The notes: a model not told the origin generated them from the sequence alone. A DNA stretch of 64,000 nucleotides from Patescibacteria group bacterium (GCA_038065125.1 JBBTRP010000006.1:172-64171); one strand, 5' to 3'. Shown: positions 22,890-58,349, numbered from the stretch's first letter. Numbers and translations are program-made.

Positions 22890-23873
22890 ATGGTCATTAC
22901 CAGAACACCATTTCGCATCTCATTTTTCGGCGGAGGCAGCGACTATCCGACGTGGTTTAATCAGCACAGTGGAGCCGTGCTGTCCGCAACGATCAATAAG
23001 TACTGCTATATTAGCTGCCGCTATCTGCCGCCATTTTTTGAGCATACAAGCAGGGTCGTGTGGTCAAAAATCGAGTCAGTGAAAGGTGTCGACGAGATTC
23101 AGCACCCAGTTGTGCGTCATGCCCTGCAATGGCTCGGCATTTCCGAAGGTCTGGAGATCCACCACAATGCCGACCTTCCGGCACGTGCGGGCCTGGGATC
23201 AAGTTCGTCGTTTACGGTCGGTTTTCTCAATGCCCTCCAAGCACTGCAAGGCCGACTAAGCACTAAGTATCAGTTGGCACTCGACGCAATTCATGTCGAG
23301 CAGGAGCTCTTGAAAGAGAACGTCGGCTGTCAGGATCAAACGGCAGCAGCGTTCGGGGGGCTCAACAAGATCGAGTTCGGCGGAATGGAACAGGTGAAGG
23401 TCTCGCCCATGGTTTGTTCGCGCGAGCGCTTGAAAGAGCTGGAGAGTCATTTGCTTCTGTACTTTACGGGTATGTCGCGAACGGCATCTGAGATTGCTGC
23501 GGAGCAAATCGCAAATATTCCCGACAAAGAACGCGAGATACGCGAGATGGTCAGGTTCGTCGACGAGGCGGTCACCATTCTTCACTCGCTCCAGTGGGCG
23601 GATCAGTTTGGCAAGCTTTTGCATGAGACCTGGCTTTTAAAAAAAACGCTTTCGAGCAAGATTGCAAACCCTCTTATCAATTCGTTATACGAAGAGGCGA
23701 GAAGTGCAGGCGCTCTTGGCGGCAAGTTGTTGGGCGCGGGTGGCGGAGGTTTTATGCTCTTTTTTGCGAAGCCGGAAAATCATCCAGCTATCAAGCAGCG
23801 CCTCGCAAATTTTTTACATGTACCGTTTGAGTTTGAGACGTCAGGGAGTCAGATCATTTACCATGCAAATTAA
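22890..23873 (+). CDS. GHMP-family sugar kinase, D-glycero-alpha-D-manno-heptose-7-phosphate kinase (HddA)-like
   Basis: TPFRISFFGGGSDYP N-terminus. GHMP motif PARAGLGSSSSF. C-terminal GAGGGGF. Confidence 0.65.
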   Translation: MVITRTPFRISFFGGGSDYPTWFNQHSGAVLSATINKYCYISCRYLPPFFEHTSRVVWSKIESVKGVDEIQHPVVRHALQWLGISEGLEIHHNADLPARAGLGSSSSFTVGFLNALQALQGRLSTKYQLALDAIHVEQELLKENVGCQDQTAAAFGGLNKIEFGGMEQVKVSPMVCSRERLKELESHLLLYFTGMSRTASEIAAEQIANIPDKEREIREMVRFVDEAVTILHSLQWADQFGKLLHETWLLKKTLSSKIANPLINSLYEEARSAGALGGKLLGAGGGGFMLFFAKPENHPAIKQRLANFLHVPFEFETSGSQIIYHAN

Positions 23874-38392: not shown

Positions 38393-38404
38393 GAAGTCCA
38401 CCCG

Positions 38405-41764: not shown

Positions 41765-42853
41765 ATGAAGCAAAAAGTAAGTATTTGCATCCCGGTATAT
41801 AATGGAGGTCAGTTACTGCGAAGGGCCATCGAGTCCGCGCTTACTCAAACGCACCCCACTGTTGAGGTTGTCATTGTGGATAACGCGAGTACAGATGAAA
41901 CGCCTACGCTTGTGGCAGAGTACGAGGCAAAGGACTCACGCGTAAAAAGCTTTCGGAACGAAAAAAATATCGGTAACAACCCGAATATTTTAAGGTCTTT
42001 TCAGCTTGCCACTGGCGACTTCGTCCAGCTACTGTGCCACGATGACTGGCTCTCACCCACGTATATTGCTGATGTTTATAGATTATTTGAACTTCATCCC
42101 GAGAGCTTATTTTGTACAGGAAAGGTTGTCGGATTTTTGTCAGATGAAGGCTTTTCGATCACAGAGTGCAATTATCAGAACTATTTTACCCGTGAAAAGT
42201 ACTCGATCTCGGATATACTAGGAAAGCTCTATTCATCAATCTGGTTGCACTATACTATTCTTGGAATGATGAGAAAAGATGATGTTGATAAGGCGATAGC
42301 GAACATGCCCGATGCCGTCTATCAGCAAAACTTCAGTTCTACTGATACGAATGGCTATTTACGGCAGATTTTTTCTGATGCATTTTTGATTCTTGTCATC
42401 CAGTCTCTTTTCTCATATCGATGGATCGGGGCGACTAATTCATGTTTTTATGCAAAAGTAGGCACAACGGTGACCAAAGAGCGCGTGGAGCGTATCTACC
42501 CGCGTAACACAATTCAGCAAGTCGTTGAATACCAAACAATGATTGCGGAGCACTATAGTAAGCTTTATTCGACGCTTGGTTTTTTAAAGTACCTTCCAGC
42601 GATGAAATACTATTTTTCACGCACGCTACTCAATGAACTTGTGATCCACTGCCTGAAGACTAAAACCTCATTACGGGCACTCTTACAGCATAAAAATGTA
42701 AGAGATTATCTAGCCTCCATCCCAAGAGTGCGACTCTTGGCTGAAATTATTCGCTGTTTGCCGTGGCTTGTCTTGAGAGGATTAGCGTATAATGCCCGCG
42801 GGCAAAGAAAAAAAAGGTTTACCAGCTTCTGCGTGCCGCCTACGCCCCTGTAG
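41765..42853 (+). CDS. glycosyltransferase family 2
   Basis: VSICIPVYNGG..VVIVDNASTDET..HDD. Confidence 0.8.
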   Translation: MKQKVSICIPVYNGGQLLRRAIESALTQTHPTVEVVIVDNASTDETPTLVAEYEAKDSRVKSFRNEKNIGNNPNILRSFQLATGDFVQLLCHDDWLSPTYIADVYRLFELHPESLFCTGKVVGFLSDEGFSITECNYQNYFTREKYSISDILGKLYSSIWLHYTILGMMRKDDVDKAIANMPDAVYQQNFSSTDTNGYLRQIFSDAFLILVIQSLFSYRWIGATNSCFYAKVGTTVTKERVERIYPRNTIQQVVEYQTMIAEHYSKLYSTLGFLKYLPAMKYYFSRTLLNELVIHCLKTKTSLRALLQHKNVRDYLASIPRVRLLAEIIRCLPWLVLRGLAYNARGQRKKRFTSFCVPPTPL

Positions 42854-43823
42854 TATAACGTTTCATGTCCGCATCGACCATCATTTCAACGAGGCCAGAA
42901 AAGTCAACCGTGTGCCGCCATCCGAGAATGCGGAGTGCTTTCTCTGAGTTTCCGTGCAGATGATCGACGTCTGTGGGACGCTTGTGGGTAGACGTCGAAA
43001 TAACATATCGCTCCCAGTCAGCAATGTCTACATGTTCGAACGAACGCTGAACGAATTCGCGCACAGAATGACTCTCGCCGGTTGCTACGGCAAAGTCGTC
43101 TGGCACATCGTGTTGGAGCATGCGATACATCGCTTCTACATAATCTCCCGCAAAACCCCAATCGCGCCGAGCGTCTAGGTTCCCAAGCTCGAGCTTTTCA
43201 GCAAGTCCAAGCTTGATGCGCGCAACGGCGTCCGTGATTTTTCGTGTAACGAACTGCTTGCCGCGAAGAGGGGATTCATGATTGAAGAGAATGCCGTTTG
43301 CCGTAAAGAGGCCATAGGAGTGGCGGAAGTTGACAGTAATCCAGTAAGCGTTCAATTTTGCAATGGCGTAGGGACTTTGGGGATTGAAGGGCGTATTTTC
43401 GTCTTGTGTTCCGTCCTCTGATTTGCTCCCGCCGTACATCTCAGACGTCGACGCCTGGTAGAATTTCGAAAGCGGAGAAAAGAGCTTGATAGCGTTCAGG
43501 AGGTAAATCACACCGAGTGCGTTGACTTCAGTTGTGAGTTTTGCGAGGTCCCACGAGAGGCCCACAAAGGATTGCGCGGCAAGATTGTAGACTTCAGTGG
43601 GTCTGAGTTGCTTGACGAGGCGCAACAGTGACGCCTCATCCGTGAGGTCGCCGTCGACCAACTCAACATCCTTCGTGATTCCCAGCCAGTCGAGATTCGA
43701 GAAGTTTGGGTTTGAGTACCTACGGAGCATGCCGTAGACCTTATAGTCCTTCTCAAGTAGGAGTTTTGCAAGATAGGGACCGTCTTGGCCCAAAATTCCG
43801 GTAATCAGTGCCGTCTTTTTCAT
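42840..43823 (-). CDS. gmd: GDP-mannose 4,6-dehydratase
   Basis: ALITGILGQDGPYLAKLLLEKDYKVYG, SEMYG, YAIAKL, NHESPLRG are canonical Gmd motifs. Confidence 0.9.
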   Translation of the reverse strand: MKKTALITGILGQDGPYLAKLLLEKDYKVYGMLRRYSNPNFSNLDWLGITKDVELVDGDLTDEASLLRLVKQLRPTEVYNLAAQSFVGLSWDLAKLTTEVNALGVIYLLNAIKLFSPLSKFYQASTSEMYGGSKSEDGTQDENTPFNPQSPYAIAKLNAYWITVNFRHSYGLFTANGILFNHESPLRGKQFVTRKITDAVARIKLGLAEKLELGNLDARRDWGFAGDYVEAMYRMLQHDVPDDFAVATGESHSVREFVQRSFEHVDIADWERYVISTSTHKRPTDVDHLHGNSEKALRILGWRHTVDFSGLVEMMVDADMKRYTTGA

Positions 43824-44835: not shown

Positions 44836-45947
44836 CTCCATTCTACAATGATTTCACTCGAACGCTTACCCATTTGCTCTCGCTCGTGTGGGTTATTGAG
44901 AAGTAGAGAGATATATTCCCCAAGCCGTACAACGTCGCCGACCGGATAGATGTACCCACTTCCGTCTTGCACGAGATCAGTGGCGCATCCGACAGCATCG
45001 GAAGTGATTATTGGCAACCCAAAACACATAGCCTCATTGACGACAAGTCCAAATGTCTCAAAGCCTGACGGCAAGACGAAAATGTCAGCGGCACCGAAGT
45101 AGAGAGAAAGTTCACTTTGATTTTTGAACCCCTCAAAGAAAACACCATCTATGGAGTTTTTTTTTGCGTAGGACTCAAGTTCGGATCGAAGTGGACCGTC
45201 GCCGACGAAAACGAGCACCGCACTCTTTTTTGGCAAGCAGGAAAACGCTTGCAAGACATCGTGCGGTCGCTTTCGATTGATCAACTTTGCGGCAAATAGA
45301 ACGATAGGAAGATCCGGATACCCCAGTCTTTTTTTAAGGTCAGATTTTTTTGGAAGTGCTTTGCGTTGTGTGAAGAAGTACTCATTGTCTACGGCATACG
45401 GCATAAAATAAAGCTTGCTTTCGGGAATTTTATAGTAATCGTAGAAAGCTCTGCTTTTTTTTCCAACGGGAAAGCATGCGGAGCATCCACTGAAAAAAAA
45501 TTTAAAAAAAAGTTTCTGTACATATGCCCGTACCCCTGAGTGGGGCGTGATGATCGTCTCGCCGCGGAAAAAGATCGGAACTCCTTTTATTCTCGCTGCA
45601 ACGTATGCAATGAGTGTCGTTGCGTGCGTGTATCCGTGGATGAGAAGGGCGTCATACGTGCCCACAAGGATTTCGTGCACAATTCCAAGATTGACCAGTC
45701 CAAAAAATGAGTTGACGTCAGGTTTAAAGGAGTAGTTCTTGAGAAAATGACAGACGTACCCACTCACAAGGTCGCGATCCCAGGTAAATCGGACGCCGAA
45801 ACCCGGATCAATAGCAGGCCGAAGTGCGTGGTCGGAACAGTAAAAAACAGTCACGTCAATTTCTGTGCACTCGGCAAGCTTTCGAAAGAATGGCGCGTGG
45901 TATTGAATTGGGTGAGTTTGCAGGATCGCAAGCCGGAACGGGTTCAT
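44739..45947 (-). CDS. glycosyltransferase family 4
   Basis: FVLPSGFETFGLVVNEAMCFGLPII. 97-nt convergent overlap with the preceding GT2. Confidence 0.8.
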   Translation of the reverse strand: MNPFRLAILQTHPIQYHAPFFRKLAECTEIDVTVFYCSDHALRPAIDPGFGVRFTWDRDLVSGYVCHFLKNYSFKPDVNSFFGLVNLGIVHEILVGTYDALLIHGYTHATTLIAYVAARIKGVPIFFRGETIITPHSGVRAYVQKLFFKFFFSGCSACFPVGKKSRAFYDYYKIPESKLYFMPYAVDNEYFFTQRKALPKKSDLKKRLGYPDLPIVLFAAKLINRKRPHDVLQAFSCLPKKSAVLVFVGDGPLRSELESYAKKNSIDGVFFEGFKNQSELSLYFGAADIFVLPSGFETFGLVVNEAMCFGLPIITSDAVGCATDLVQDGSGYIYPVGDVVRLGEYISLLLNNPHEREQMGKRSSEIIVEWSYGTGVSAVLNALAATRKSASHIPRKRTASRR

Positions 45948-47542
45948 TTCTTTTGTAGAATATAATAATCGACATACTGGAAGCTATTCTTATCCTGTAC
46001 GAGTAGAGATGAGAGGGGTGAGTTGGCGAGAACATTTTTTACGAGTGTTTTAGCCGTAACAAGAGGTACGAAGTACGGGCTTGTCGACCGCCAAACAAGG
46101 CGATATCTCTTCAATAGATCATCAAGGACTGCTTGAGTGTATTCGACATGAGCCTGCGGCACAAGCAACAGAATGTCTCCGGTTTGGCATTTTTCAAGTC
46201 CTGGTGAAAAAACAGAATAGTGCAGATCAAATTTAAGGCTGGAAAAACGAGTTGAGCGGGGGGTGGCCGAGCGAAGATCAAAGTCTTTATTCGTTAGGCC
46301 CCGGAATTCGAGAAATTGAGCCATAATCGAATAAGTACCCAGTCCCCCTGTATTGGCATCGAGCACGGAGTCAATAAATATACTAACGGGTTTATTCTTT
46401 GACTCCTTTATCAGTGGGATAAGGGTGTCAAGCATGTTATTGAAATTAAGAGGAAGGTACTTATTATAGGTGAGGTAGTGCGCCCCTGCCGGTATCACAT
46501 TGACCGCAAAGATAAGTAAGACAAGGATTACCGGAGCGATAATTTTTTTTGCCTGCATGCGTGAGATAAAAAAGGCAGCGGACGGGATAGCAAACGCATA
46601 AGCGCCGAGCAGGTATTGCGGACCGTAGAATCCAAGGGCAAGGTATGCGATCATAAAACACAAAGCAGCAAAAAGAAGAGCGTCGTAGAGAGGATGTGGC
46701 GAGTCGTGCTTGAGGGCTATTCTATAGATCCGATGCAGCCCGAGCGGCAGAATTGCAAAAAAAAGAAATGGATCAGAAAATGTGGCGTAGTTGATCAAGT
46801 TTTTTGCGAATACCAGAAGATTGAACGACTGATGGGTTATGAGTCCAAGATCTGCATATGGCAGGACAAGAAATTTATAAAAAACAAGATAGGTAATACT
46901 GGAGGCGAGAAGGAGTGTATCGAGTGCTTTTTCACGCGCGGTGCCTCCTTTCCAAAACAAAAAGATTCTGGCGATAGAGACCCCTCCAATAAGGATAAAG
47001 GCGGTTTCCTTATAGTAGATTGTTGCGTTTGCGGCCACTAAGGTTGCAAGAAGTAATGGAATAGTTTGCCTATTTAAAAACAGAGAGTAAAAAAATATGA
47101 ATAGGAGCGCATAAAAAATTACATTACGATCCGTAAGCTGCAGCCGAAACCACGATATTGTAAACGCCGGGAGGAGAAAGAGAAATATCGATGTGCATAA
47201 TGTTCGCCATCTACTCAGCCCACTCCAGCGAACAACGATCCACAGAAACACAGCAAACAGAATAAATTGGACCGCATGAAAGAAGAAATAGGCACGAGGG
47301 TGGTTTGAAAACAATGCTACGGCGTTATATTCCAGATCTGAAAGAGGCGTGAAGCGTCCAGTTGCCATCGAGTCGTAGTAGGGAAAATCTGGCGAATAGT
47401 AAAAAAGAGATTTATTAATTTGAAGAGTCTTAAGAAAAACAAAGTCGTCCGTCGGGCCAAGTAATGGTGAGACAAGAAAGATTGCCGAATATACCGCGAC
47501 GATAAGTATGTATACGAAAATGGCAGGATGAATTTTTTCCAT
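45944..47542 (-). CDS. polytopic membrane protein, putative GT-C glycosyltransferase (ArnT/PMT-like)
   Basis: About 13 TM. Acidic DD motif in the first loop (GPTDDFVFL). Confidence 0.5.
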   Translation of the reverse strand: MEKIHPAIFVYILIVAVYSAIFLVSPLLGPTDDFVFLKTLQINKSLFYYSPDFPYYDSMATGRFTPLSDLEYNAVALFSNHPRAYFFFHAVQFILFAVFLWIVVRWSGLSRWRTLCTSIFLFLLPAFTISWFRLQLTDRNVIFYALLFIFFYSLFLNRQTIPLLLATLVAANATIYYKETAFILIGGVSIARIFLFWKGGTAREKALDTLLLASSITYLVFYKFLVLPYADLGLITHQSFNLLVFAKNLINYATFSDPFLFFAILPLGLHRIYRIALKHDSPHPLYDALLFAALCFMIAYLALGFYGPQYLLGAYAFAIPSAAFFISRMQAKKIIAPVILVLLIFAVNVIPAGAHYLTYNKYLPLNFNNMLDTLIPLIKESKNKPVSIFIDSVLDANTGGLGTYSIMAQFLEFRGLTNKDFDLRSATPRSTRFSSLKFDLHYSVFSPGLEKCQTGDILLLVPQAHVEYTQAVLDDLLKRYRLVWRSTSPYFVPLVTAKTLVKNVLANSPLSSLLVQDKNSFQYVDYYILQKK

Positions 47543-47625
47543 ACCAGGAGGACGTTTGACGGTGAAGTGTCTATCTGTATACTATATTCAAAAGGAAATT
47601 TAATGCAAAGCTTTGAGTCGCAGAT

Positions 47626-48813
47626 ATGGAATCAACTCCGTTGCGCTATCACCTCGCAAAAGACACAATCGATCGAAGCGATATCGACGCTCTTATTGAG
47701 TGGCTCAAAGGATATCCGCGATTGACAAAGTCAACCCTCACGACCGAGTTTGAAAAAAAATGGTCAGAGTGGCTAGGCATGGATTTCTCCGTTTTTTGCA
47801 ACTCTGGATCTTCGGCGAATCTATTGATGTTTGCCGCGCTCCTGGAGTCAAAGCGTCTTGCAAATAAGAAGGTGATCGTGCCGTCAGTTGGTTGGGGAAC
47901 CACAATTGCGCCTGCTATGCAGCTGGGATTTGAACCAATCATGTGTGAAGCGGATTCTGAAACCTTCGGCCTCGACCTCGATCATCTACGTATTCTACTT
48001 GAAAAGCATCATCCATCGACAGTCATTATGGTGCAAGTATTGGGGGTTCCCCATAAGATGGACGAACTCCTTTCTCTAAAGGAGCAATATGGCTTTATTT
48101 TACTTGAAGATGCCTGTGCAGCAATGGGTGCGTCGTATAAGGGAAAGCATGTTGGCACGTTCGGAGACATGGCGAGTTTTTCCCTCTACTTCGGTCACCA
48201 GATATCGACAATCGAGGGTGGACTTGTATCGACTAATGACCCCAAGTTCCGTGATCTACTCCTTATGCTAAGAAGTCATGGGTGGGGCAAGGACCTGGAC
48301 GAAGAAACGCATAACGCATTTGTAGACAAACACGCGATCGATGATTTCCACAAACCATTCGTTTTTTACATCCCGGGATACAATGTGCGATCAACAGACT
48401 TGAACGCATTTTTGGGTATCCGCCAGATCGATAAGATGGAGCGACTCATCAAGTCTCGATCAGAAAATCATAGTCGCTACACGCAGCTGCTCGGATCGTT
48501 TTTCCAGTGCCAAAAAGCACCCGACCAGTCGGTTGTGTGTAGTATCCATTTCGGCGCACTTGCACATAGTCGAGAGCAGCGGAAAGCAATCGTCTCAGCG
48601 TTATTGGAGAACGGCATCGAAACACGCATATTTTCTGCAGGCAACCTCGGCCTTCATCCGTTTTGGACGAGAAGCTATGGAGAGACATCGTTCCCTGTTG
48701 CCGATCGCATTCACCACGCCGGTTTTTTTCTGCCCAATCATCCGTCCTTAGGGGAGAAAGACATCGAGTTTATCGTGCGAGTTGTGCTTCAAGCCGCTTC
48801 TGTCACCAGCTAA
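47626..48813 (+). CDS. PMP-dependent NDP-4-keto-6-deoxyhexose 3-dehydrase (E1/DdhC- or ColD-like; DegT fold with Lys replaced by His)
   Basis: DegT/DnrJ/EryC1 fold. The Schiff-base Lys position reads SLYFGHQISTIEGG (His), as in E1 and ColD. Confidence 0.75.
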   Translation: MESTPLRYHLAKDTIDRSDIDALIEWLKGYPRLTKSTLTTEFEKKWSEWLGMDFSVFCNSGSSANLLMFAALLESKRLANKKVIVPSVGWGTTIAPAMQLGFEPIMCEADSETFGLDLDHLRILLEKHHPSTVIMVQVLGVPHKMDELLSLKEQYGFILLEDACAAMGASYKGKHVGTFGDMASFSLYFGHQISTIEGGLVSTNDPKFRDLLLMLRSHGWGKDLDEETHNAFVDKHAIDDFHKPFVFYIPGYNVRSTDLNAFLGIRQIDKMERLIKSRSENHSRYTQLLGSFFQCQKAPDQSVVCSIHFGALAHSREQRKAIVSALLENGIETRIFSAGNLGLHPFWTRSYGETSFPVADRIHHAGFFLPNHPSLGEKDIEFIVRVVLQAASVTS

Positions 48814-48814
48814 T

Positions 48815-49750
48815 ATGGCAAAAGTTTGCGTTACCGGCGGAGCAGGGTACATCGGATCAATGCTTGTGCCAGAACTCCTTAGGCGCGGGCATGAGGTCGT
48901 CGTCGTTGATAATTTTATGTATCGACAAACATCCTTGCTTGAGTGTGTGCACGACCCCACGCTCAACCTTGTACGAGGCGACGCCCGTAACCGACAGACC
49001 ATACAACGTGCCGTGAAGGGTTGCGATGTTATCATTCCGCTTGCGTGTATTGTCGGCGCCCCTGCATGCGATAAAGACTCTCAGCTTGCGCGTTCGACAA
49101 ACCTCGATGCCATACTTCTCCTTTTGGAACTTCGCGATCAAGGCCAGCGAATTATTTTTCCGAACACTAATAGCGGGTATGGTATTGGGCAGGACGGTAT
49201 GTTTTGCACAGAGGAGAGTCCTCTCAATCCAGTTTCGCTCTATGGACAGCTAAAGGTAGAGGCGGAAAAGCGACTGCTCGAGGCGGGCAACGCCATTACA
49301 TTTCGACTTGCAACAGTATTCGGTATTAGCCCACGCATGCGGTTAGACCTTTTGGTAAATGACTTCGTCTACCGCGCGGTCTTTGATCGCTTCGTAGTCC
49401 TCTTTGAGCCTCATTTTAAGCGTAACTACATTCATGTTCGCGATGTTGTTTCTGCGTTCTTGCACGCGATTGATCATTTTGATGAGATGAAGGATACGAC
49501 CTATAATGTCGGTCTTTCTAATGCTAATTTATCAAAGCATGAACTCTGTCAGGAAATTCAAAAAATTCTTCCATCTTTTGTTTTTCAGGAGGCGTCGATC
49601 GGGGAAGACCCAGACAAACGAAACTATGTTGTCAGTAATGAAAAAATAGAAGCAACCGGCTACCGCCCACAAGTGTCGTTGCGGCAGGGAATCGAGGAGC
49701 TGGTTAAGGGGTATCAGGTCATTCCACCGCATCACTACTCCAACCGGTAG
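48815..49750 (+). CDS. NAD(P)-dependent sugar-nucleotide reductase/epimerase (CDP-abequose/paratose-synthase or ColC-like SDR)
   Basis: MAKVCVTGGAGYIGS. YGQLKVEAE. Lies immediately downstream of the 3-dehydrase. Confidence 0.7.
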   Translation: MAKVCVTGGAGYIGSMLVPELLRRGHEVVVVDNFMYRQTSLLECVHDPTLNLVRGDARNRQTIQRAVKGCDVIIPLACIVGAPACDKDSQLARSTNLDAILLLLELRDQGQRIIFPNTNSGYGIGQDGMFCTEESPLNPVSLYGQLKVEAEKRLLEAGNAITFRLATVFGISPRMRLDLLVNDFVYRAVFDRFVVLFEPHFKRNYIHVRDVVSAFLHAIDHFDEMKDTTYNVGLSNANLSKHELCQEIQKILPSFVFQEASIGEDPDKRNYVVSNEKIEATGYRPQVSLRQGIEELVKGYQVIPPHHYSNR

Positions 49751-49754
49751 TTCT

Positions 49755-50753
49755 ATGGGACGCACCTTTCAAAAAGTGCTCGTTACGGGCGCGAGTGGTT
49801 CTGGTGGAAGTTATCTCGTTGACTACATAGCAGCGAATCATCCCCATGTTGAAATTCACGGCGCTACGCGTTGGCACAGCACGACTACAGGAGCCAACCT
49901 TTCACGCTCGCGCGACAAGGTCAAACTCCACGAGTGTGATTTGTGTGATTTAAGTTCCGTCGTCCGAGTGCTCAGCGAGGTCAAGCCAGACGCGATTTTT
50001 CATCTTGCAGCATACGCAAACGTCCGAGCATCGTTTCAAACTCCGCTCACGGTCATTGAGAACAATGTGATGGGAACGGCAAACCTCCTCGAGGCTATGC
50101 GCCTAACGGGGTGTGATGCGGTACTGCAACTGGCCAGTACGTCAGAAGTGTACGGACAGGTTGACCCCAGTGACGTACCCATTAAGGAAGACTGTCCAAT
50201 CCGGCCCTCGAGCCCCTATGCAGTCTCGAAAACGACACAAGATTTGCTTGGTGGAGTGTATTTTAGAAGTTACGGTATGAAGATTGTACGTACACGGATG
50301 TTTGCGTACATCAATCCGCGAAGAGAAGATCTATTCGCGACCTCTTTTGCAAAACAAGTCGCACTTATCGAGACCGGGATGCAGACAGAACTTTTGCATG
50401 GCAACCTGGACTCGACCCGAACCCTTCTTGACGTACGTGATGCGATGGAATCTTACTGGGTTGCGACATCGCTTTGCGAGTTCGGCGAGATATACAATAT
50501 CGGCGGGGAGACCGTGATTACGGTCGGGGAGTTTTTAGAGCTCCTAAAGAAAAACTCTACCGTTACCATACAGTCGCGCGTCAATCCAGACCTTCTCAGA
50601 CCATCGGATGTGACCTTGCAAATACCCGATACATCGAAGTTTTTTAAGGCTACCGGATGGCGCCCTAAGTACTCCTTTGAGGAGAGCGTGCTTTTTCTTT
50701 TAAATTACTGGCGCGAGCGCATTCGTGCGGGTAATCTAACAAAATTGATATGA
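49755..50753 (+). CDS. NAD-dependent epimerase/dehydratase (extended SDR)
   Basis: VLVTGASGSGGSYL. YAVSKTTQD. Confidence 0.8.
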   Translation: MGRTFQKVLVTGASGSGGSYLVDYIAANHPHVEIHGATRWHSTTTGANLSRSRDKVKLHECDLCDLSSVVRVLSEVKPDAIFHLAAYANVRASFQTPLTVIENNVMGTANLLEAMRLTGCDAVLQLASTSEVYGQVDPSDVPIKEDCPIRPSSPYAVSKTTQDLLGGVYFRSYGMKIVRTRMFAYINPRREDLFATSFAKQVALIETGMQTELLHGNLDSTRTLLDVRDAMESYWVATSLCEFGEIYNIGGETVITVGEFLELLKKNSTVTIQSRVNPDLLRPSDVTLQIPDTSKFFKATGWRPKYSFEESVLFLLNYWRERIRAGNLTKLI

Positions 50754-51460
50754 AAGTCAGCTTATTCATACCGACACTAAATGAGATTGAGGGCGTCAAG
50801 GCGATCATGCCGCGCGTTAAGCGCGAGTGGTTCGATGAAGTTATTATTGTGGACGGAAATTCAACGGACGGGACACGGGAGTATCTTGAATCTCTCGGGT
50901 ATAGTGTATTGTCCCAAACAGTTCCGAACCTGATGGGCGCATGGTGGCAGGGATTCCAGGCTGCAACAGGAGATGTGATTGTTCTCTTCAGTCCGGATGG
51001 AAACTCTATTCCAGAGCTCCTTCCAGCACTCATTAAAAAAATGCGGGAGGGCTATGATATGGTGACCGTTTCCCGCTATAAAGATGACGCAAAAAGCGAA
51101 GATGACGATTTACTAAGCAAGCTTGGTAACGGTTTTTTTACGGGTATGATTAATTTGCTTTTCCGTTCACATTATACCGACGTTCTTGTCATCTTTCGGG
51201 GATTCAAAAAAGAGTTACTTACGTCTTTCCATCTTACTAAAGATTCCGGAGCTCAGTTCAACCCAACGAGGTTAGGAATTTATGAGCTTTTTCTATGTAT
51301 CGGCTGCGCAAAACAGAAAAAAAGGGTTGCTGAAATTGCTGGTGATGAGTTGCACAATATTGGACGAAATGAAAGTAGGGCGTTTAAAAATAATTATGCA
51401 AAAATCGCTGCCGCGTTCACCATGCTGTACCATATTGTGAGGGAACGGATTTCTTCTTGA
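50750..51460 (+). CDS. GT2 glycosyltransferase, polyprenyl-phosphate sugar synthase-like (DPM1/GtrB-like catalytic domain)
   Basis: VSLFIPTLNE..IIVDGNSTDGT..FSPDGN. Confidence 0.7.
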   Translation: MKVSLFIPTLNEIEGVKAIMPRVKREWFDEVIIVDGNSTDGTREYLESLGYSVLSQTVPNLMGAWWQGFQAATGDVIVLFSPDGNSIPELLPALIKKMREGYDMVTVSRYKDDAKSEDDDLLSKLGNGFFTGMINLLFRSHYTDVLVIFRGFKKELLTSFHLTKDSGAQFNPTRLGIYELFLCIGCAKQKKRVAEIAGDELHNIGRNESRAFKNNYAKIAAAFTMLYHIVRERISS

Positions 51461-51509: not shown

Positions 51510-52493
51510 CTAAGCAATCCTATTGCGCGGCGGTCCGCCTTCCAGTGTTCTTTTGACGTTTGTCGAAGCTTTTTTTCGCATTTCCTCCCACGACTGCTTA
51601 GAATAGTATGCGGAATGAGGAGTGATGATAATTCTGTCATGATAGGCAGATGACTCATTAGTCCACATGCGAAGAAGTTTATCAGAAAAATTCGGCGGCT
51701 CCTGCGGAAGAACATCAAAACCAACTCCTGCCAAGGTTCCGTTTTCAAGTGCGACGGCAATACTATCAAGACTTGCAATAACTTTACCTCGGGCGGTGTT
51801 AATAAGAATGGATCCATGGTTGAGTCGTGAGAGGATTTTCTCGTCGATCATACCCAGTGTCTCATCTGAGAGCGGGCAATGAATAGAAATGATAGTCGAA
51901 GAAGAAATAAGATCGCTGAGAGAATCGTATCGGACCATGTTTAGTATTTTCTCATAGCCTGGGGAGATAAAAGGGTCGTAGCAGCCGATCTGCATACCGA
52001 ATGCACTCATCCGTAGAGCTACAGCAGAGCCAATCCTGCCAGCGCCTATGATCCCAAGGCGGTGTTCGTTGAGGCGTCGTATGTCGGGTAAAGAGTTTTG
52101 GCTCCAGGCATGCGGCCCTTTTTTTGAAAAACGATCGTATTCAAGGATTTTTCTGGTTAACGTGAGTATCATCGCGCAGGCGGTATCGGCAACTTCGTGT
52201 ACACCATAGTCCGGTGTGTTGCACGTGATTATTCCCTTCGTGCTGGCATAGGTGTGGTCGATATTGTCAAATCCCACGCCATATCGCTGGATGATTTTGC
52301 ACTTTTTCAGTCTGTCGATCGTCCGAGCAGACACACGCGCGCCCCAGACAAGCAGGGCGTCTGCATCCGCAACTGCCTCTCCAAATAGAGACTCATCGCC
52401 TTTATTTAAGCATATGACCTCATACTCCTCGCCAAGGGTAGCCGTTTCAATATCGGGATTGACTACGTAGTCAGTTATCACGATTTTTTTCAT
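51510..52493 (-). CDS. D-isomer-specific 2-hydroxyacid dehydrogenase
   Basis: GIIGAGRIGSAV NAD motif. 2-Hacid_dh catalytic and NAD-binding order. Confidence 0.8.
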   Translation of the reverse strand: MKKIVITDYVVNPDIETATLGEEYEVICLNKGDESLFGEAVADADALLVWGARVSARTIDRLKKCKIIQRYGVGFDNIDHTYASTKGIITCNTPDYGVHEVADTACAMILTLTRKILEYDRFSKKGPHAWSQNSLPDIRRLNEHRLGIIGAGRIGSAVALRMSAFGMQIGCYDPFISPGYEKILNMVRYDSLSDLISSSTIISIHCPLSDETLGMIDEKILSRLNHGSILINTARGKVIASLDSIAVALENGTLAGVGFDVLPQEPPNFSDKLLRMWTNESSAYHDRIIITPHSAYYSKQSWEEMRKKASTNVKRTLEGGPPRNRIA

Positions 52494-53026
52494 ATCCCGC
52501 CGCCGAGAACCCGCAGGACGGCCACCATGAAAGCCGCCGTATCGCGAGGATGACGTGATGTAATTAGTGAGCCATCGATTATGGCCGGAGCATCTTCATA
52601 AAGCGCGCCGGCATTTAATAGATCTATTGCAATGGCTGGGTGACAGGTTGCTCGGCGTCCATCGAGTATTCCCGCCGAAATCAATACCTGTGGTCCATGG
52701 CAAATGGCCGCAACCATTTTCCCCTCGTCATGCAGCGTTTTAATGAGCGAGAGTGCTTGCGGAATACGTCGGACCCTGTCGGGAGCCTCAAAGCCACCGG
52801 CAATAATTACGCCATCATAATCGGCGGGTTGAAGGTAGGCAATATCTGACTGTGAGGCGTAAAACTCGACAAGACGACTTGCCGGATAGCCCAGTCGCCC
52901 TACTGCCGGCAATCCATTCGGGGTGGCAATAATCGGCTCGTACCCAGCCTCTTTCAACCGAATAATTGGATAGATAAGCTCCTCATCTTCAAAGCCATTT
53001 GCTGTAAGAAAGATGATTTTTTTCAT
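52490..53026 (-). CDS. DJ-1/PfpI family protein (glyoxalase III/protease-like)
   Basis: AAICHGPQVL nucleophile-elbow Cys. 178 aa. Confidence 0.8.
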   Translation of the reverse strand: MKKIIFLTANGFEDEELIYPIIRLKEAGYEPIIATPNGLPAVGRLGYPASRLVEFYASQSDIAYLQPADYDGVIIAGGFEAPDRVRRIPQALSLIKTLHDEGKMVAAICHGPQVLISAGILDGRRATCHPAIAIDLLNAGALYEDAPAIIDGSLITSRHPRDTAAFMVAVLRVLGGGI

Positions 53027-53115: not shown

Positions 53116-54027
53116 ATGAACGATACGGTTACAGTATATCAGTATATGGAAAATTTTGTCACAGGAATAAACACAGAGAACGCCACATCACAGTCGCTCG
53201 AGTGCTGGCGAAAAATGTGTGTTGCCCGGACCTTTGAACTGAATGTCAAAAAGGCTTTTGATGCCAAAGCGATTCGCTGCCCCATTTATCTTTCTCTTGG
53301 ACAGGAGTCAATCCCTGCAGCGGTCTCAACCCTCTATAAGAACCCGGCAATTTTTGCTCAACACCGCGCGCATTCGACATATCTTTCATTCGGAGGAGAT
53401 CCTGAAACACTCATTGATGAGCTGCTTCTTAAGCCAACCGGGTGTAGTGGAGGGATGGGGGGGTCAGCATCGATTCAGGACAAATCCATCTCAATGTTTG
53501 GCCATACGGGATTCATTGGAGATCAAATTCCCATATCGGTTGGTTTCGCGCTTGGAGCAGCACGTAACGTGTTAACGATATTTGGAGACGCTGCAGCAGA
53601 GGAGGATTATGCGGCATCATCAATCGGGTATGCTGCGCATAAGAAGCTTCCGATTCTTTTTGTGTGCGAGGATAATAATCTGTCCATCTTAACAGAAGTA
53701 AAGGTTCGCAGGAGCTGGAAAATTGTGGATGTCGCTCGAGCGATGGGTGTTGCAGCCGAAGACATATCGGATGATCCGTGGGAAATCATGCAGTCGGTGA
53801 GCGAGATGATCGGCCACCTCCCGGCACTTCTCAACATTCATACCATTAGACATCTATGGCATTCAGGTACCGGTATTGATGGCGCTCCCGCCTATGATCG
53901 TTTCCTTCTCACGCGTGAAAAATTATCTTCCATGGGTTTGTCATCCGAAGTGGCAGCCATAGAAGACGAAGCCGCGAAACGCATGGAGAATCTGTGGCAA
54001 ACAAAAGTGTATCAACGAGTGAGCTAA
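53116..54027 (+). CDS. ThDP-dependent dehydrogenase E1 component alpha-subunit homolog
   Basis: ThDP-binding GDAA..EDNN motif (IFGDAAAEEDY..LFVCEDNNLSI). Confidence 0.8.
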   Translation: MNDTVTVYQYMENFVTGINTENATSQSLECWRKMCVARTFELNVKKAFDAKAIRCPIYLSLGQESIPAAVSTLYKNPAIFAQHRAHSTYLSFGGDPETLIDELLLKPTGCSGGMGGSASIQDKSISMFGHTGFIGDQIPISVGFALGAARNVLTIFGDAAAEEDYAASSIGYAAHKKLPILFVCEDNNLSILTEVKVRRSWKIVDVARAMGVAAEDISDDPWEIMQSVSEMIGHLPALLNIHTIRHLWHSGTGIDGAPAYDRFLLTREKLSSMGLSSEVAAIEDEAAKRMENLWQTKVYQRVS

Positions 54028-54049
54028 TCAAGAAACAAGTTACGCATTC

Positions 54050-54958
54050 ATGACGGTAGCAGAAACAATCAGTGAGCTTACGAGGGAGCATCTCCAAAAG
54101 AATAATGGCCTTGCCCTGGGGCAGTGTCTCACCGCGGTAGGCTGGGTCGGTGGAACTGTGCCGCAGATGCGAGAGGAGGATGGCCTTGTCGAGCTACCGG
54201 CGACAGATGTTGCCGGAAGTGGCTTTGCGGTTGGCGTTGCACTTGCTGGTAGACGCCCGATATATATCGTTCGGTATCAGGGATTCCAGTGGTATAACGC
54301 AGTCTCTGTAGTTAATTATGCCGCTAAATCAAAGCACATTTGGGGGAGGCCGTGCCCGGTATTTGTTCGATCGATCGCTATGGACGGGGGTATAGGACCG
54401 GTAGCAAGTGGTAGCCACCATAGCATGTTCACACGCATGCCGGGTATACCCGTTGTCGCGCCGATGACTCCGAACGAGTATCGGGCAATTTGGCATCATT
54501 TTCTCTCGCACGATGACCCGATGTACGTGAGTGAGCACAGACGAAGCTTTTCGATTGACTACGAGATGCAAGACAGTATAGGAGAGGCAGATGTAACCCT
54601 ATTTGCCATTTCATCAACGAGACTCAATGCACTCCAGGCAAAAAAAATACTTGAAGAGCAGCATATTCCTTGTAACATTATTCATCTACTCTGGCTGAAG
54701 CCATTCATCGTTGAACAACGCATGCTCTCTGCACTAAACCTCTCGCGGTTTGGCGGATTGGTGATTGATGGAGATTTTGAAAACGGTGTACTTAAACATG
54801 TCGCTTATGACCTTATGCGTAGTTCAAAAGCTGAGATCGAGGTTCTCGGTCTTGAAGATCGCGTAGCGGGTTTTGCACCCGAGCTTGATAACCTTCCTCC
54901 TTCGCCTGATCGAATAGTGGCAAAGGTTATCGATATTATAAACAAGAAGCGGGCATGA
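54050..54958 (+). CDS. ThDP-dependent dehydrogenase E1 component beta-subunit homolog
   Basis: Transketolase-like pyrimidine-binding domain (ELPATDVAGSGFAVGVALAGRRP) plus C-terminal domain. Confidence 0.8.
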   Translation: MTVAETISELTREHLQKNNGLALGQCLTAVGWVGGTVPQMREEDGLVELPATDVAGSGFAVGVALAGRRPIYIVRYQGFQWYNAVSVVNYAAKSKHIWGRPCPVFVRSIAMDGGIGPVASGSHHSMFTRMPGIPVVAPMTPNEYRAIWHHFLSHDDPMYVSEHRRSFSIDYEMQDSIGEADVTLFAISSTRLNALQAKKILEEQHIPCNIIHLLWLKPFIVEQRMLSALNLSRFGGLVIDGDFENGVLKHVAYDLMRSSKAEIEVLGLEDRVAGFAPELDNLPPSPDRIVAKVIDIINKKRA

Positions 54959-55705: not shown

Positions 55706-56401
55706 ATGCCTCGGCGTTACGAAAGTCGTAATTTTCAATCTATTCTCTTTGACTTTGACGGAGTGCTTGGCGACACGATGGAAGATCACTTCCGAGCATG
55801 GAGATCCGCCCTGGCCTTTGTTGGTATCATCCTCAAGCGAGAAGCTTTTTTTCCGCTTGAGGGAATGAGTGTATATGATACCGTTGAGCACTTTTGCAAA
55901 CTTTTTAACATTCCGGCCTCTCGCGCAGACGAGATATTAAACAAGAAGATCGAGCACTATCTCAAACACCACTCATTTGTATTCTTTCCTTTTGTTGAGG
56001 AGTTCATAGATTCTCTTCGGCTGAAAAACATATCCTTTGCTTTGGTGACTGCGGGTATGCGAAACCGTCTTAACGCAACCGTGCCGTTGGATTTCTTGGC
56101 GAAGTTCCCCGTTATTATTACTGGTGAGCGGGGTGTACGCATGAAACCATGTCCCGACCCATACTTGGCGGCAGCCCAAGAGCTTGGGGTCGATCCCCGT
56201 GAATCAATCGTTGTGGAAAATGCGCCACTCGGAGTGCAGGCCGCAAAAGCCGCCGGTTGTTTTTGCATAGCCCTCGAAACCAGTGTATCAAAGGAGTATC
56301 TCACTCAGGCAGATGAAACATACCCATCATTTCTCGATATGCAAAAATCTTTAGCAATCCAAAACCTTACTATTAGTACCATATGCCTACAAAAAAAATA
56401 G
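55706..56401 (+). CDS. HAD-IA hydrolase (beta-phosphoglucomutase/phosphatase-like)
   Basis: ILFDFDGVLGDT motif I, taken from the internal ATG just after the cupin stop. Confidence 0.75.
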   Translation: MPRRYESRNFQSILFDFDGVLGDTMEDHFRAWRSALAFVGIILKREAFFPLEGMSVYDTVEHFCKLFNIPASRADEILNKKIEHYLKHHSFVFFPFVEEFIDSLRLKNISFALVTAGMRNRLNATVPLDFLAKFPVIITGERGVRMKPCPDPYLAAAQELGVDPRESIVVENAPLGVQAAKAAGCFCIALETSVSKEYLTQADETYPSFLDMQKSLAIQNLTISTICLQKK

Positions 56402-57336
56402 TTATCACGGGCGCAGACGGGTTCATAGGTCGAAACCTCTTCGACTTTTTTGCATCACATAAGGAGTATGATGTTTGGGGGACGTATCACCTCAAAAAAT
56501 CATTCGATCATCCTAATCTTATTCAGGCTGATTTGATGCGTCGTGAGGATGTATCACGCATCTGTACGGGCGCAGACATCATTGTCCACGCCGCAGCAGT
56601 TACCTCCGGGGCGAAGAATATAGTATCGCGACCCTATATTTATGTGACAGACAATACAATCATGAACACCCTCCTGTTTCAGGAGGTATATGACAGATCA
56701 ATTTCACGATTCATTTTTTTTAGTTGCTCCGTAATGTACCCGATGGATCGTACTGTTCCCGTGAAGGAAGAAGACGTCGATCTTGAGAACGGCATCCATC
56801 GAGCGTACTTCGGCGGTGCTTGGATGAAGGTGTACGCAGAAAAAATTTGTGAGTTTTATTCGCGATTAGGACGCACGTCGTTTACGGTGATTCGACATTC
56901 GAACATCTACGGCCCTCATGACACTTTTGACCAAGATAAAGCGCATGTGTTTGCCGCAACGATTCTTAAAGTGATGAACGGCAAGGACTCAATCACCGTG
57001 TGGGGAGACGGGTCGGAGCGGCGAGATCTTCTCTATATCGACGACCTCATTCGTTTCGTCGGTCTTGCTCTCGCAAAACAGAAATCTCCGTATGAGCTAG
57101 TTAATGTCGGGGTTGGCCGCGCAGTGTCAGTTGCAGAGCTCGTATCAAGAATTGTCACACATTCCGGCAAGAAACTACAGATACATTTTGATCCATCGAA
57201 ACCGACAATTCCGAGCAGGCTCGCGCTTGATTACTCAAAAGCCCGCGAGCTGTTCAATTGGGAGCCAAGCACAACACTGGATGATGGCATTAAAAAAACT
57301 CTTGACTGGTACGGTCGTCAGTCTTTGGCGACCTGA
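56383..57336 (+). CDS. NAD-dependent epimerase/dehydratase (extended SDR)
   Basis: IVITGADGFIGRNL. YAEKICE-region YxxxK. Confidence 0.8.
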   Translation: MPTKKIVITGADGFIGRNLFDFFASHKEYDVWGTYHLKKSFDHPNLIQADLMRREDVSRICTGADIIVHAAAVTSGAKNIVSRPYIYVTDNTIMNTLLFQEVYDRSISRFIFFSCSVMYPMDRTVPVKEEDVDLENGIHRAYFGGAWMKVYAEKICEFYSRLGRTSFTVIRHSNIYGPHDTFDQDKAHVFAATILKVMNGKDSITVWGDGSERRDLLYIDDLIRFVGLALAKQKSPYELVNVGVGRAVSVAELVSRIVTHSGKKLQIHFDPSKPTIPSRLALDYSKARELFNWEPSTTLDDGIKKTLDWYGRQSLAT

Positions 57337-58349
57337 ACCGAATCACGAAAGACATTATATTTTGTGTCAGACGCGGTACGGTGAGCAAGAAACCATTTGA
57401 CGGTTTCGCGGATTCCGTCCTCAAGCGCAACGCGGGGTGCGTAGCCGATGGATTTTGCACGCTCTATATCCATAATTCGGATTGCGTCGCCGCTCTTTTT
57501 TGAACTATCCCACACAACGTTTGGCGGCTGTGGAAATGCTGCGCAGATTGCGTCGACGAGCTGTCGAATACTCACTCCTGTTCCCGAGCCAAGGTTGATC
57601 GGACGACCATCCGCATGTTCCATTGCAAGGAGCATTCCATGCGCGACGTCTTGCGAATGGACAAAGTCACGGATTTCCGAACCGTCGCCCCAGACAGTGA
57701 GCGGGTTTTCGCCATCCGCAATTCTTCGAATGAGCGAAGGGATCACCATGGCATTAGCTGGGTCAAAATTATCAAAAGGCCCATAGGTGTTTGCCGGGCG
57801 AACGATCGCGATTTTCGTCCAGCCATATTCGATCGCGTACGCTTCTGCCTGCAACTCTCCCATGCGCTTTGCCCATCCGCCGAACCAGTCGAGCCTCGAG
57901 GGCATTGTCTTCCAAACATCATCTTCAAAAAACCGCTGAGCAGGTCCATAGACGCCGAGGGTGCTTGTGTAGAGATAACGCTTTACACCAGAGACTCGTG
58001 CAGCTTCCATCATGTTGGTGTTGAATAAGATGCCGGGCACGAAAATACTCGCGGGACGCGACAGTGTCGTGCCGGCGCCGACTTTTATTCCGGCGAGATG
58101 GAAGACGAACTCAATTCCCTCACACGCCTTTAGACAGTTCTGATACTGCATGAGGTTCAGCTTGATGCATTCGACGCCCTCGGGCATTCCCTTCTGCTCA
58201 TCAAGCGAAACGACGCGGACGCGTGCACCTAGGTCAACTAATTGAGAGACGAGCTGTCTTCCAATCATTCCAGTGCCGCCAGTTACAAGAATACTCTTGT
58301 TCAAATAGATACTTTTGTCCATGTGCTTACTATTTTTGTGATGTTTCAC
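57318..58349 (-). CDS. NAD-dependent epimerase/dehydratase (extended SDR)
   Basis: ILVTGGTGMIGRQL. Start may be the internal Met at 58322. Confidence 0.8.
   Translation of the reverse strand: MKHHKNSKHMDKSIYLNKSILVTGGTGMIGRQLVSQLVDLGARVRVVSLDEQKGMPEGVECIKLNLMQYQNCLKACEGIEFVFHLAGIKVGAGTTLSRPASIFVPGILFNTNMMEAARVSGVKRYLYTSTLGVYGPAQRFFEDDVWKTMPSRLDWFGGWAKRMGELQAEAYAIEYGWTKIAIVRPANTYGPFDNFDPANAMVIPSLIRRIADGENPLTVWGDGSEIRDFVHSQDVAHGMLLAMEHADGRPINLGSGTGVSIRQLVDAICAAFPQPPNVVWDSSKKSGDAIRIMDIERAKSIGYAPRVALEDGIRETVKWFLAHRTASDTKYNVFRDSVQVAKD

Follow-up and report, generated by a model that had tools for sequence, protein, structure and literature searches.

We analyzed a 64,000-nucleotide stretch of DNA from a Patescibacteria group bacterium (GCA_038065125.1 JBBTRP010000006.1:172-64171; hereafter the window), centred on a gene that we call H (47626..48813, + strand) and that encodes a predicted C3-dehydratase of nucleotide sugars. 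On balance, we think it probable from the sequence that H makes a GDP-linked 3-deoxy- or 3,6-dideoxy-4-keto sugar, probably a heptose, that is then branched at C4 and exported. That H belongs to this enzyme class is a sound assignment and by itself no surprise; what makes the gene interesting is its membership of a conserved and uncharacterised module, a variant of the known logic of deoxy- and branched-sugar synthesis.

H is a predicted ColD-type C3-dehydratase

The H protein (395 aa) is predicted to be a C3-dehydratase dependent on pyridoxal or pyridoxamine 5′-phosphate (PLP or PMP), of the type of ColD, with the DegT fold; the Pfam family DegT_DnrJ_EryC1 (PF01041) matches it at 229 bits. 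The original prediction for this region had noted a His in place of the Schiff-base Lys of the DegT-fold aminotransferases, and alignment bears this out. In a HMMER alignment, the peptide FSLYFGHQISTIEGG (H residues 185-199) stands opposite FSSFYSHHIATMEGG of ColD, pairing His191 with ColD His188 (the ColD PDB chain index is the residue number + 2, as verified against the H188N and H188K mutant entries). The same peptide stands opposite VSFYPAHHITMGEGG of E1, the CDP-sugar 3-dehydrase, pairing His191 with E1 His220. His191 is unchanged in 20 of 20 aligned homologues and in 80 of 80 family members from genome loci, and is therefore no chance substitution. The replacement of Lys by His in the DegT fold is a known signature of C3-dehydratases (PMC8987622).

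An AlphaFold2 (AF2) model of H has ColD as its top fold match (TM 0.81-0.83), with sugar aminotransferases scoring almost as high in the Foldseek search; Foldseek does not discriminate between a dehydratase and an aminotransferase, and the His alone does so. The near-equal scores, together with the Ala165 that replaces a Gln, Glu or Asp (see below), could be taken to mean that H is an ordinary or inactive aminotransferase homologue in which the His is incidental. We find this scarcely credible, given a His present throughout the 80 loci, a mean column identity of 79% for the H family across phyla and a substitution that marks C3-dehydratases (PMC8987622). The invariance of the His and the column identity point to strong purifying selection, and the inactive-enzyme reading was rejected on these grounds.

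The best PDB match of H is ColD (2GMS, E = 3e-51), which is 50 bits ahead of E1 (E = 4.5e-36). Only the first Cys of the E1 cluster C-x57-C-x1-C-x7-C, which holds the [2Fe-2S] centre, has a counterpart in H: Cys164, equivalent to E1 Cys193 and also found in ColD. The E1 stretch WGRDCYCAPGCDNTC, with Cys251, Cys253 and Cys261, aligns to a shorter H segment, WGKDL......DEE, that has no Cys. Neither a Fer2 nor a FAD_binding_6 domain, as would be expected of an E3-like reductase, was found by Pfam in the open reading frames (ORFs) scanned, which comprised those of at least 150 aa in the window except for a few nested in other scanned genes. With His191, no E1 Cys triad and no E3-like protein, the simplest explanation of the sequence is that H is a ColD-type, Fe-S-independent C3-dehydratase, predicted to regenerate its own cofactor, and not an enzyme of the E1 type. 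The preference for ColD over E1 in the original prediction, based on the length of the protein and the lack of an E3-type reductase, is thus well supported.

The contrary case, that H is an E1-type dehydrase acting on CDP-4-keto-6-deoxyglucose from RfbF and RfbG to give abequose-, paratose- or classical yersiniose-type sugars, can draw on the RfbF-like and RfbG genes 8 kb upstream, on RfbH being the top NCBIfam match of H, and on the fact that a CDP-3,6-dideoxy-4-keto sugar is the acceptor for every acyl-branched glycan sugar known (PMC9306805). However, the RfbH match (199 bits) is well under its cutoff of 423, H lacks three of the four Fe-S cysteines, no E3 is seen, ColD is the better match, and the CDP genes are grouped in a separate operon alongside those for C-methyltransferase, epimerase and reductase. 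We consider it very improbable; the sub-cutoff RfbH score, the missing Cys triad and the missing E3 led to its rejection.

H is 32.1% identical to ColD over 361 aa, whereas the proven ColD-type enzymes of E. coli O55, Yersinia pseudotuberculosis and C. jejuni HS:5/11/45 are 62-67% identical to each other (PMC10440746). About 6,900 relatives of H are found at E <= 1e-20; the nearest 120, 67-75% identical to it, come from Patescibacteria, Elusimicrobiota, Nitrospirota, Acidobacteriota, deltaproteobacterial and other metagenome-assembled genomes (MAGs), and the subfamily is 65-76% identical across at least 6 phyla. This low identity to ColD, combined with thousands of relatives, the nearest of them so similar, places H in a separate, strongly constrained subfamily. 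It keeps the ColD residues at Trp90, Asp162, Phe245, Asn253, Arg255 and Arg334, and the family departs from ColD in (near-)invariant fashion at Gly190 (Ser187 in ColD), Ala165 (Glu162) and Lys222 (Arg219). The cofactor-binding residues, on which the original prediction also depended, gave a divided result: Asp162 is present at the position of the Asp that meets the pyridine nitrogen, but the second position, Glu162 in ColD, Asp194 in E1 and Gln in aminotransferases, is taken by Ala165, which is invariant in the H family. In the fold family, a Gln or Glu at this position contacts O3′.

The H protein is identical to an NCBI protein from a groundwater MAG that is annotated just as a PLP-dependent "aminotransferase", and the gene order around H is the same on ENA contigs of 52-78 kb.

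Genes I and J and the probable source of the 4-keto sugar

Three genes, I, J and K, follow H on the same strand in tight succession, the gaps being 1, 4 and -4 nt. Gene I (48815..49750, + strand, 311 aa) encodes a Cj1427-like extended short-chain dehydrogenase/reductase (SDR) with the motifs GGAGYIG and YGQLK, proposed here to be a GDP-sugar C4-dehydrogenase. Its probable start is the ATG at 48815, one base past the H stop, and not the TTG at 48782. The protein is 54.5% identical to PDB entries 6VO6/6VO8 over 308 ungapped residues (390 bits; the next PDB match has 88 bits). These entries were deposited as a C. jejuni 'putative sugar-nucleotide epimerase/dehydratase', and we take them to be Cj1427. 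An SDR does directly follow H, as had been predicted, but its assignment as a terminal reductase is not supported, given the similarity to 6VO6/6VO8.

In C. jejuni, Cj1427 is a C4-dehydrogenase that gives GDP-4-keto-heptose and is recycled by alpha-ketoglutarate, which reoxidises its tightly bound NADH in a ping-pong fashion (PMC10680097). Combined in vitro with a C3-dehydratase by the Raushel group, it yielded GDP-3-deoxy-4-keto-heptose; the 3-deoxy-heptoses were called novel, and GDP-3-deoxy-heptoses have so far been reported just from such mixing of enzymes in vitro (PMC10680097). By analogy, the H-I pair looks like the natural counterpart of this mix.

Gene J (49755..50753, + strand, 332 aa) was missed by the original prediction because the region considered ended at 49750. 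It encodes an extended SDR of the DmhA/GMD family, with ASTSEVYG, YAVSK and NPRRED motifs. The Thr/Ser-x-Glu and Tyr-x3-Lys residues of J are also retained by the RMD reductases and hence do not discriminate between a dehydratase and a reductase. J does, however, carry the PRR motif and RW loop of dehydratases, where both RMDs show GPGQ. In a neighbour-joining tree from 193 ungapped columns, rebuilt from alignment output with few reference sequences, the J family and DmhA (7US5) form one clade with 100% bootstrap support and both RMDs fall outside it. J is thus most likely a GDP-sugar 4,6-dehydratase, with a role as C4-reductase being the alternative; given the few, rebuilt references of the tree, the former is favoured and not proven.

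Conserved partners of H in other genomes

To this local picture we can add a survey of 80 loci encoding H relatives, with one genome per species, from the Candidate Phyla Radiation (CPR), Elusimicrobiota, Nitrospirota, Acidobacteriota, deltaproteobacterial and other MAGs; neighbours were counted in 56 large loci (15 kb or longer). With 34 of the 80 loci coming from Nitrospira, the counts lack independence, but the pattern of H partners holds in every taxon group. All 78 informative loci have a homologue of I (56-69% identity) in the same orientation as H and no more than 4.5 kb from it; the other two loci are 2-kb contigs. Three of these I genes (in loci L009, L012 and L013) were absent from the ORF-based count and were found by tblastn at 68% identity. 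An HddA-like GHMP kinase lies near H in 52 of the 56 large loci, an NTP-transferase in 48 and B12-binding radical S-adenosylmethionine (radical-SAM) enzymes in 45, compared with a J-type gene in 7 and Gmd in 3 (3-4 of all 80 loci).

An enzyme dependent on thiamine diphosphate (ThDP) is found near H-I in 55 of the 56, and directly adjacent to H in many of them. It is of the pyruvate dehydrogenase (PDH) E1 alpha/beta or split-transketolase type in 34 loci and of the acetolactate-synthase type (YerE-like in those checked) in 22, with both present in 1. The classes represented include enzymes known or proposed to put acyl branches on keto sugars (PMC12247030; PMC4425429; PMC9306805). Because the classes swap in a near-exclusive manner, ThDP chemistry would appear to be an obligatory partner of H-I; such swapping is the pattern expected if the chemistry, rather than a particular protein, is required.

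Orthologues of J (60-70% identity) occur in 14 of the 80 loci, mostly in the order H-J-I or H-I-J, and the J-containing loci also hold orthologues of five other window genes described below (E1a, E1b, SDR343, SDR317 and K). A MAG labelled Nanoarchaeota has a complete cassette in a single locus (L081, 84-11250), with H, J, I, E1a, E1b, SDR343, SDR317, the kinase and an NTP-transferase, as a result of either lateral transfer between episymbiont lineages or mis-binning.

The cassette of Candidatus Nitrospira defluvii runs H, I, kinase, NTP-transferase, aminotransferase, B12-radical-SAM enzyme, ThDP enzyme and a second B12-radical-SAM enzyme. There is no SDR besides I in this cassette, leaving I as the sole candidate there for generating the 4-keto group. 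The best solved match of its ThDP enzyme is JanthE (8RPH), a YerE-like, ketone-accepting carboligase. Most Nitrospirota loci, for example L059 (FP929003, 10001-20298), have in addition a class I/II aminotransferase and two to three radical-SAM enzymes that bind B12, and the Nitrospira version has a YerE/JanthE-like ThDP enzyme in place of the E1 alpha/beta pair. This suggests that an aminated, C-methylated branched sugar is made in these bacteria.

The original prediction had named a colitose-like sugar as the more likely product. In such a pathway, Gmd would provide GDP-4-keto-6-deoxymannose, H would act as ColD and a neighbouring SDR as ColC, and the end product would be GDP-colitose or some other 3,6-dideoxyhexose without a branch. 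ColC belongs to the GDP-fucose-synthase family. The window does have a near-cutoff Gmd 4 kb from H, two GDP-fucose-synthase-like SDRs (SDR317 and SDR343), and in H a ColD-like protein free of Fe-S ligands. The identity of H to ColD is nevertheless about half of that seen among proven ColD types, Gmd is rare near H in the surveyed loci where the Cj1427-like gene and a ThDP enzyme are nearly always present, the orthologues of SDR317 and SDR343 travel with H, J, I and E1a/E1b in genomes that have no local Gmd, and the window Gmd lies on the opposite strand amid unrelated glycosyltransferases. We therefore judge this pathway to be decidedly improbable and a colitose product unlikely, and this part of the original prediction did not hold up. 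A 3,6-dideoxy pattern is possible in the window; the sugar is more likely to be a heptose, and an intermediate in C4 branching, than a finished colitose-like hexose.

The survey also bears on the direction in which I works. If I were a reductase, either at C4 or, like YerF, on the acyl branch, H would depend for its substrate on 4,6-dehydratases alone, be it J, Gmd or one whose gene lies elsewhere, and the product would be strictly 3,6-dideoxy. SDR reactions are reversible, J is in the operon, and a ketoreductase for the branch would likewise co-occur with H and ThDP enzymes; Cj1427 itself is reportedly able to reduce 6-deoxy-4-keto-heptose. Set against this are the ungapped 54.5% identity of I to an enzyme shown to be a C4-dehydrogenase and the Nitrospirota loci: neither a J-type gene nor Gmd occurs within 10 kb in any of the 28 large ones (at least 15 kb), and the N. 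defluvii cassette would be left without a source of 4-keto sugar. These data make a reductase function for I improbable.

An unbranched, Campylobacter-like path is somewhat better placed, though we still think it unlikely. Here, I and/or J would give GDP-4-keto(-6-deoxy)-heptose, H would remove the 3-OH and a fucose-synthase-like SDR would reduce C4, yielding a plain GDP-3,6-dideoxy- or GDP-3-deoxy-heptose, the ThDP genes belonging to some other pathway of the island. Homologues of all four C. jejuni classes are present (C4-dehydrogenase, 4,6-dehydratase, C3-dehydratase and GDP-fucose-synthase-like reductases; PMC10680097), and the E1a/E1b genes of the window are outside the H-I-J-K operon. 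Such a path does not account for a ThDP enzyme accompanying H-I in all but one of the large loci, in three interchanging classes and often directly beside H, nor for the N. defluvii cassette, which lacks any SDR besides I to reduce C4.

Window genes assigned to the H module

The window ThDP enzyme is encoded by two genes that we call E1a and E1b (not to be confused with the E1 dehydrase). E1a (53116..54027, + strand) is a divergent PDH-E1-alpha-like subunit with the Pfam domain E1_dh and the ThDP motif GDA-x27-NN, proposed to be the alpha subunit of a C4-branching carboligase; its score against the NCBIfam model of PDH E1 alpha, 112 bits, is far under the cutoff. Its putative partner, E1b (54050..54958, + strand), is a PDH-E1-beta or transketolase-pyrimidine-domain subunit with Pfam Transket_pyr and Transketolase_C domains (60 bits against NCBIfam PDH E1 beta), and its orthologues (43-60% identity) flank H in J-containing loci. 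There is precedent for E1a in AviB1/Pau11 (PMC4425429; PMC12247030). In being PDH-E1-like, in having two subunits and a ThDP motif, and in the co-occurrence of its genes with those for a deoxy-keto sugar, the pair matches the sugar-branching enzymes of the alpha-KADH2 (AviB1/AviB2) type.

Two candidate ketoreductases or epimerases lie further downstream. SDR317 (56383..57336, + strand) resembles GDP-fucose synthase and GDP-mannose epimerase (NCBIfam GDP-L-fucose synthase, 134 bits; cutoff 500) and has orthologues (48-53% identity) in H-J-I loci of other phyla without Gmd. SDR343 (57318..58349, - strand) is a second GDP-fucose-synthase-like protein (137 bits against the same model), with orthologues (54-62% identity) in H-J-I loci. 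The HddA-like GHMP sugar kinase gene (22890..23873, + strand) lies 24 kb upstream of H and its product is 52-60% identical to the kinases of the H-I cassettes of L005, L007 and L008. Although not contiguous with H, the E1a/E1b genes (53116-54958), the two SDRs (56383-58349) and the kinase (22890-23873) are assigned to the same module because their orthologues travel in H loci. In the window, the kinase is followed by a DAO-family FAD oxidoreductase (22890-24976 for the two genes), a kind of gene also found in the L008 cassette (13416-14603).

Gene K (50750..51460, + strand, 236 aa), which overlaps the J stop by 4 nt, encodes a soluble family 2 glycosyltransferase (GT2) resembling polyprenyl-phosphate glycosyltransferases. 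It matches Pfam Glycos_transf_2, its best NCBIfam models are AglJ and dolichyl-phosphate hexose transferase, and its best PDB matches are dolichol-phosphate mannose (DPM) synthase 5MLZ (6e-12) and ArnC 9HWJ. K orthologues are found in 17 of the 80 loci.

Divergent from H is a gene for a multi-pass membrane protein of 532 aa, MEM532 (45944..47542, - strand), with a predicted GT-C fold. It has no sequence match in Pfam, NCBIfam or PDB, and the predicted fold alone is informative. The protein has 7 or more hydrophobic segments and then a soluble C-terminal portion. Its AF2 model (pLDDT 88.9) retrieves GT-C proteins as all but one, marginal, of the top 30 Foldseek PDB matches; these include DPY19, STT3/AglB/PglB, PMT, AftA and Emb, with a probability of 1.0 for about the best 20 and modest TM scores of 0.35-0.42. 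The family is tiny, with 21 detectable homologues and no Pfam model; homologues adjoin H or K in other CPR loci. From its model, we propose that MEM532 may move a lipid-linked sugar onto an acceptor. The 83-bp divergent intergenic region upstream of H contains a promoter-like site (47556..47583, + strand) with a 10/12 match to consensus, which is weak evidence, the count of such sites upstream of H being not above that in shuffled sequences.

In two other assemblies of the same population (L002 and L003, 4.6-5.2x coverage; ENA contigs equivalent to 45944-51460), H and I are intact, and the GT-C gene, J and K were called as fragments (267 aa; 252 or 252 + 79 aa; 132 aa, respectively), due either to strain-level gene decay or to low-coverage errors.

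A proposed pathway and the points against it

We propose the following scheme, in which the steps on H are modelled on ColD and C. jejuni enzymology. PLP on H would be converted to PMP by L-glutamate, with release of alpha-ketoglutarate, and the PMP would form a ketimine at the C4 carbonyl of a nucleoside diphosphate-linked 4-keto sugar. His191 would take the C4′ proton and the 3-OH would depart; hydrolysis would then give the 3-deoxy-4-keto sugar, ammonia and PLP, with neither an Fe-S cluster nor E3 being needed. A mechanism of this kind, with glutamate, has been described for ColD-type enzymes (PMC10440746; PMC8987622).

The 4-keto substrate would be provided by I, through oxidation at C4 of a GDP-sugar, probably GDP-heptose made via the HddA-like kinase. 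In the window, J could add an alternative entry that removes the 6-OH, in parallel with C. jejuni HS:3/HS:4, where the clusters hold both a C4-dehydrogenase and a 4,6-dehydratase feeding common later steps (PMC10680097). The output of H would be a GDP-3-deoxy-4-keto sugar, a GDP-3,6-dideoxy-4-keto sugar, or both. E1a/E1b would add an acyl branch at C4 of this product, following the logic of yersiniose synthesis, in which the E1/E3 product is the acceptor of YerE, ErwE and MMAR_2332 (PMC9306805). The fucose-synthase-like SDRs would reduce or epimerise the branched product, K would transfer the sugar to polyprenyl phosphate and MEM532 would attach it outside the membrane. The obligate pairing of H and I invites the speculation, by analogy with Cj1427, that alpha-ketoglutarate released by H reoxidises the NADH bound to I.

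A number of observations weigh against this scheme. The nucleotide and the sugar are assigned solely by homology of the partners, and the sole nucleotidyltransferase of the window is RfbF-like and hence of the cytidylyl type. The GHMP kinase scores 143 bits against its best NCBIfam model, HddA (heptose-7-phosphate kinase), far from the cutoff of 600. A search for GmhA-like and GmhB-like genes, whose presence would point to a heptose scaffold, found them near H in just 7 and 3 of the 56 large loci, respectively, and the locus counts in general are weighted towards Nitrospira. The ThDP genes of the window are outside the H operon, starting 1.7 kb past K and beyond two genes on the opposite strand. 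As to the enzymes themselves, Ala165 and Gly190 could mean that H differs from ColD in its kinetics or in the partners that it needs. We assign the GDP contacts of ColD to Arg219 (Lys222 in H), Phe240, Asn248 and Arg250. The identification of 6VO6/6VO8 with Cj1427 is presumed, the deposited name being no more specific than that given above. Lastly, besides the small number of references in its tree, J has tied PDB scores for RMD (2PK3, 185.7 bits) and the C. jejuni GDP-heptose 4,6-dehydratase (7US5, 184.6 bits).

Other genes of the glycan island

The two genes between H-I-J-K and the ThDP pair (51510-53026, - strand) encode a D-2-hydroxyacid dehydrogenase and a DJ-1/PfpI protein, which could supply a 2-oxo-acid donor, such as hydroxypyruvate, or recycle 2-hydroxyglutarate. 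A homologue with 30% identity adjoins the transketolase genes in L025. Downstream of E1b, a conserved-looking ORF (54955-55704, 249 aa), located before a HAD hydrolase gene, has no usable domain match, and another inside the sugar island (58481-59749, 422 aa) has a weak NUDIX match alone.

Gmd, the GDP-mannose 4,6-dehydratase (42840..43823, - strand; NCBIfam gmd 398.7 bits, cutoff 415), is a possible alternative supplier of a 4-keto-6-deoxy sugar; it is placed between unrelated glycosyltransferases on the strand opposite to H. The RfbF-like transferase (NCBIfam 256 bits, cutoff 300) and CDP-glucose 4,6-dehydratase (426 bits, cutoff 278) were also found, so that all of the precursor genes named in the original prediction are indeed in the island. 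These two belong to a separate CDP-sugar branch (33452-41751), along with two TylC3-type sugar C-methyltransferases (33452-34669 and 36625-37914), an epimerase-like gene (37763-38392), a GmhA-like SIS protein and an RmlD-like reductase. The composition of this branch suggests that it makes a CDP-6-deoxy-3-C-methyl-hexose.

Further upstream is a run of genes for a HAD phosphatase, two SDRs and a UbiA-family prenyltransferase (26439-30071), which resembles a module for polyprenyl-phospho-sugars of the decaprenyl-phospho-ribose/arabinose kind. The next genes (30020-31926) encode an HldA-type heptose-7-phosphate kinase (298 bits, rfaE domain I) with a C-terminal cupin fusion, and then a GmhB phosphatase. 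They give the island another route for the activation of heptose, of the beta-anomer type. The start of the island (7353-15118) has an LCP (LytR-CpsA-Psr) ligase, a PglF-like membrane 4,6-dehydratase, a WecA/MraY-family initiating transferase, a family 4 glycosyltransferase (GT4) and an asparagine synthase homologue. The whole of 7-63 kb is given over to surface glycan synthesis, which is striking in view of the small CPR genome.

Broader implications and comparison with known systems

Beyond the window, we tentatively extend the proposal to the whole family. In this wider form, H and I would together make 3-deoxy-4-keto nucleotide sugars in nature, retaining the 6-OH and dispensing with a 4,6-dehydratase, and would be coupled through glutamate and alpha-ketoglutarate; with interchangeable ThDP carboligases and with B12-radical-SAM enzymes, the pair would build a family of new 3-deoxy(hept)oses, branched at C4, for the cell surface of Nitrospira, Elusimicrobiota, Acidobacteriota and CPR bacteria. 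If the module works as proposed, acyl-branched sugars could obtain their deoxy-keto acceptor by a second route, one that needs no E1/E3 and is in part free of 4,6-dehydratases. The proposal would also give a role to a family of about 6,900 members now annotated just as "aminotransferase", predict new surface sugars in nitrite oxidisers of environmental importance and in candidate-phyla bacteria, whose envelopes are almost unstudied, and provide enzymes for the synthesis of 3-deoxy and branched nucleotide sugars. As Ca. Nitrospira defluvii has a complete genome with the cassette, the prediction can be tested in the laboratory.

The closest parallel for H is ColD/WbdK, the GDP-4-keto-6-deoxy-D-mannose 3-dehydratase of E. 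coli O55 (PDB 2GMS, 3B8X), with which it shares its fold, a similar length and the His at the Lys position. ColD and the GDP-heptose C3-dehydratase of C. jejuni HS:5 have, like H, neither an Fe-S motif nor an E3, and the recycling of PMP by glutamate would by analogy be expected of H. In contrast to ColD, the partners of H are a Cj1427-like dehydrogenase and a ThDP enzyme instead of Gmd and ColC, and its likely substrate may retain the 6-OH. The E1 enzymes (RfbH/AscC/DdhC) are also His-type PMP enzymes that take the 3-OH off a 4-keto sugar, and their product is the ketone acceptor of the ThDP enzyme in the yersiniose, erwiniose and caryophyllose pathways, the same role as we propose for the product of H. 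E1 differs in being 437 aa long, in having the [2Fe-2S] cysteines 193, 251, 253 and 261 and in requiring E3, whereas H is without three of these Cys and no E3 is seen.

Gene I shares its cofactor and catalytic motifs (GGAGYIG, YxxxK) with Cj1427, over an alignment that is ungapped at 54.5% identity. In C. jejuni, however, Cj1427 feeds epimerases and reductases, while I is genetically locked to the C3-dehydratase H. For the lipid-linked steps, the small GT2 beside a large GT-C-fold protein recalls the two-step glycosylation systems ArnC/ArnT and DPM synthase/PMT, with the difference that the GT-C protein of the window comes from a tiny family with no Pfam entry.

All three classes of branching ThDP enzyme known from yersiniose-type pathways (YerE/YerF, ErwE, MMAR_2332, AviB1/AviB2 and the split transketolases of miharamycin synthesis) occur in cassettes related to that of the window. 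The known glycan examples start from CDP-glucose and proceed through a 4,6-dehydratase and E1/E3. Here, their place would be taken by a ColD-type enzyme and a C4-dehydrogenase, acting on a sugar that is probably GDP-linked and probably a heptose, with B12-radical-SAM enzymes as frequent extras.

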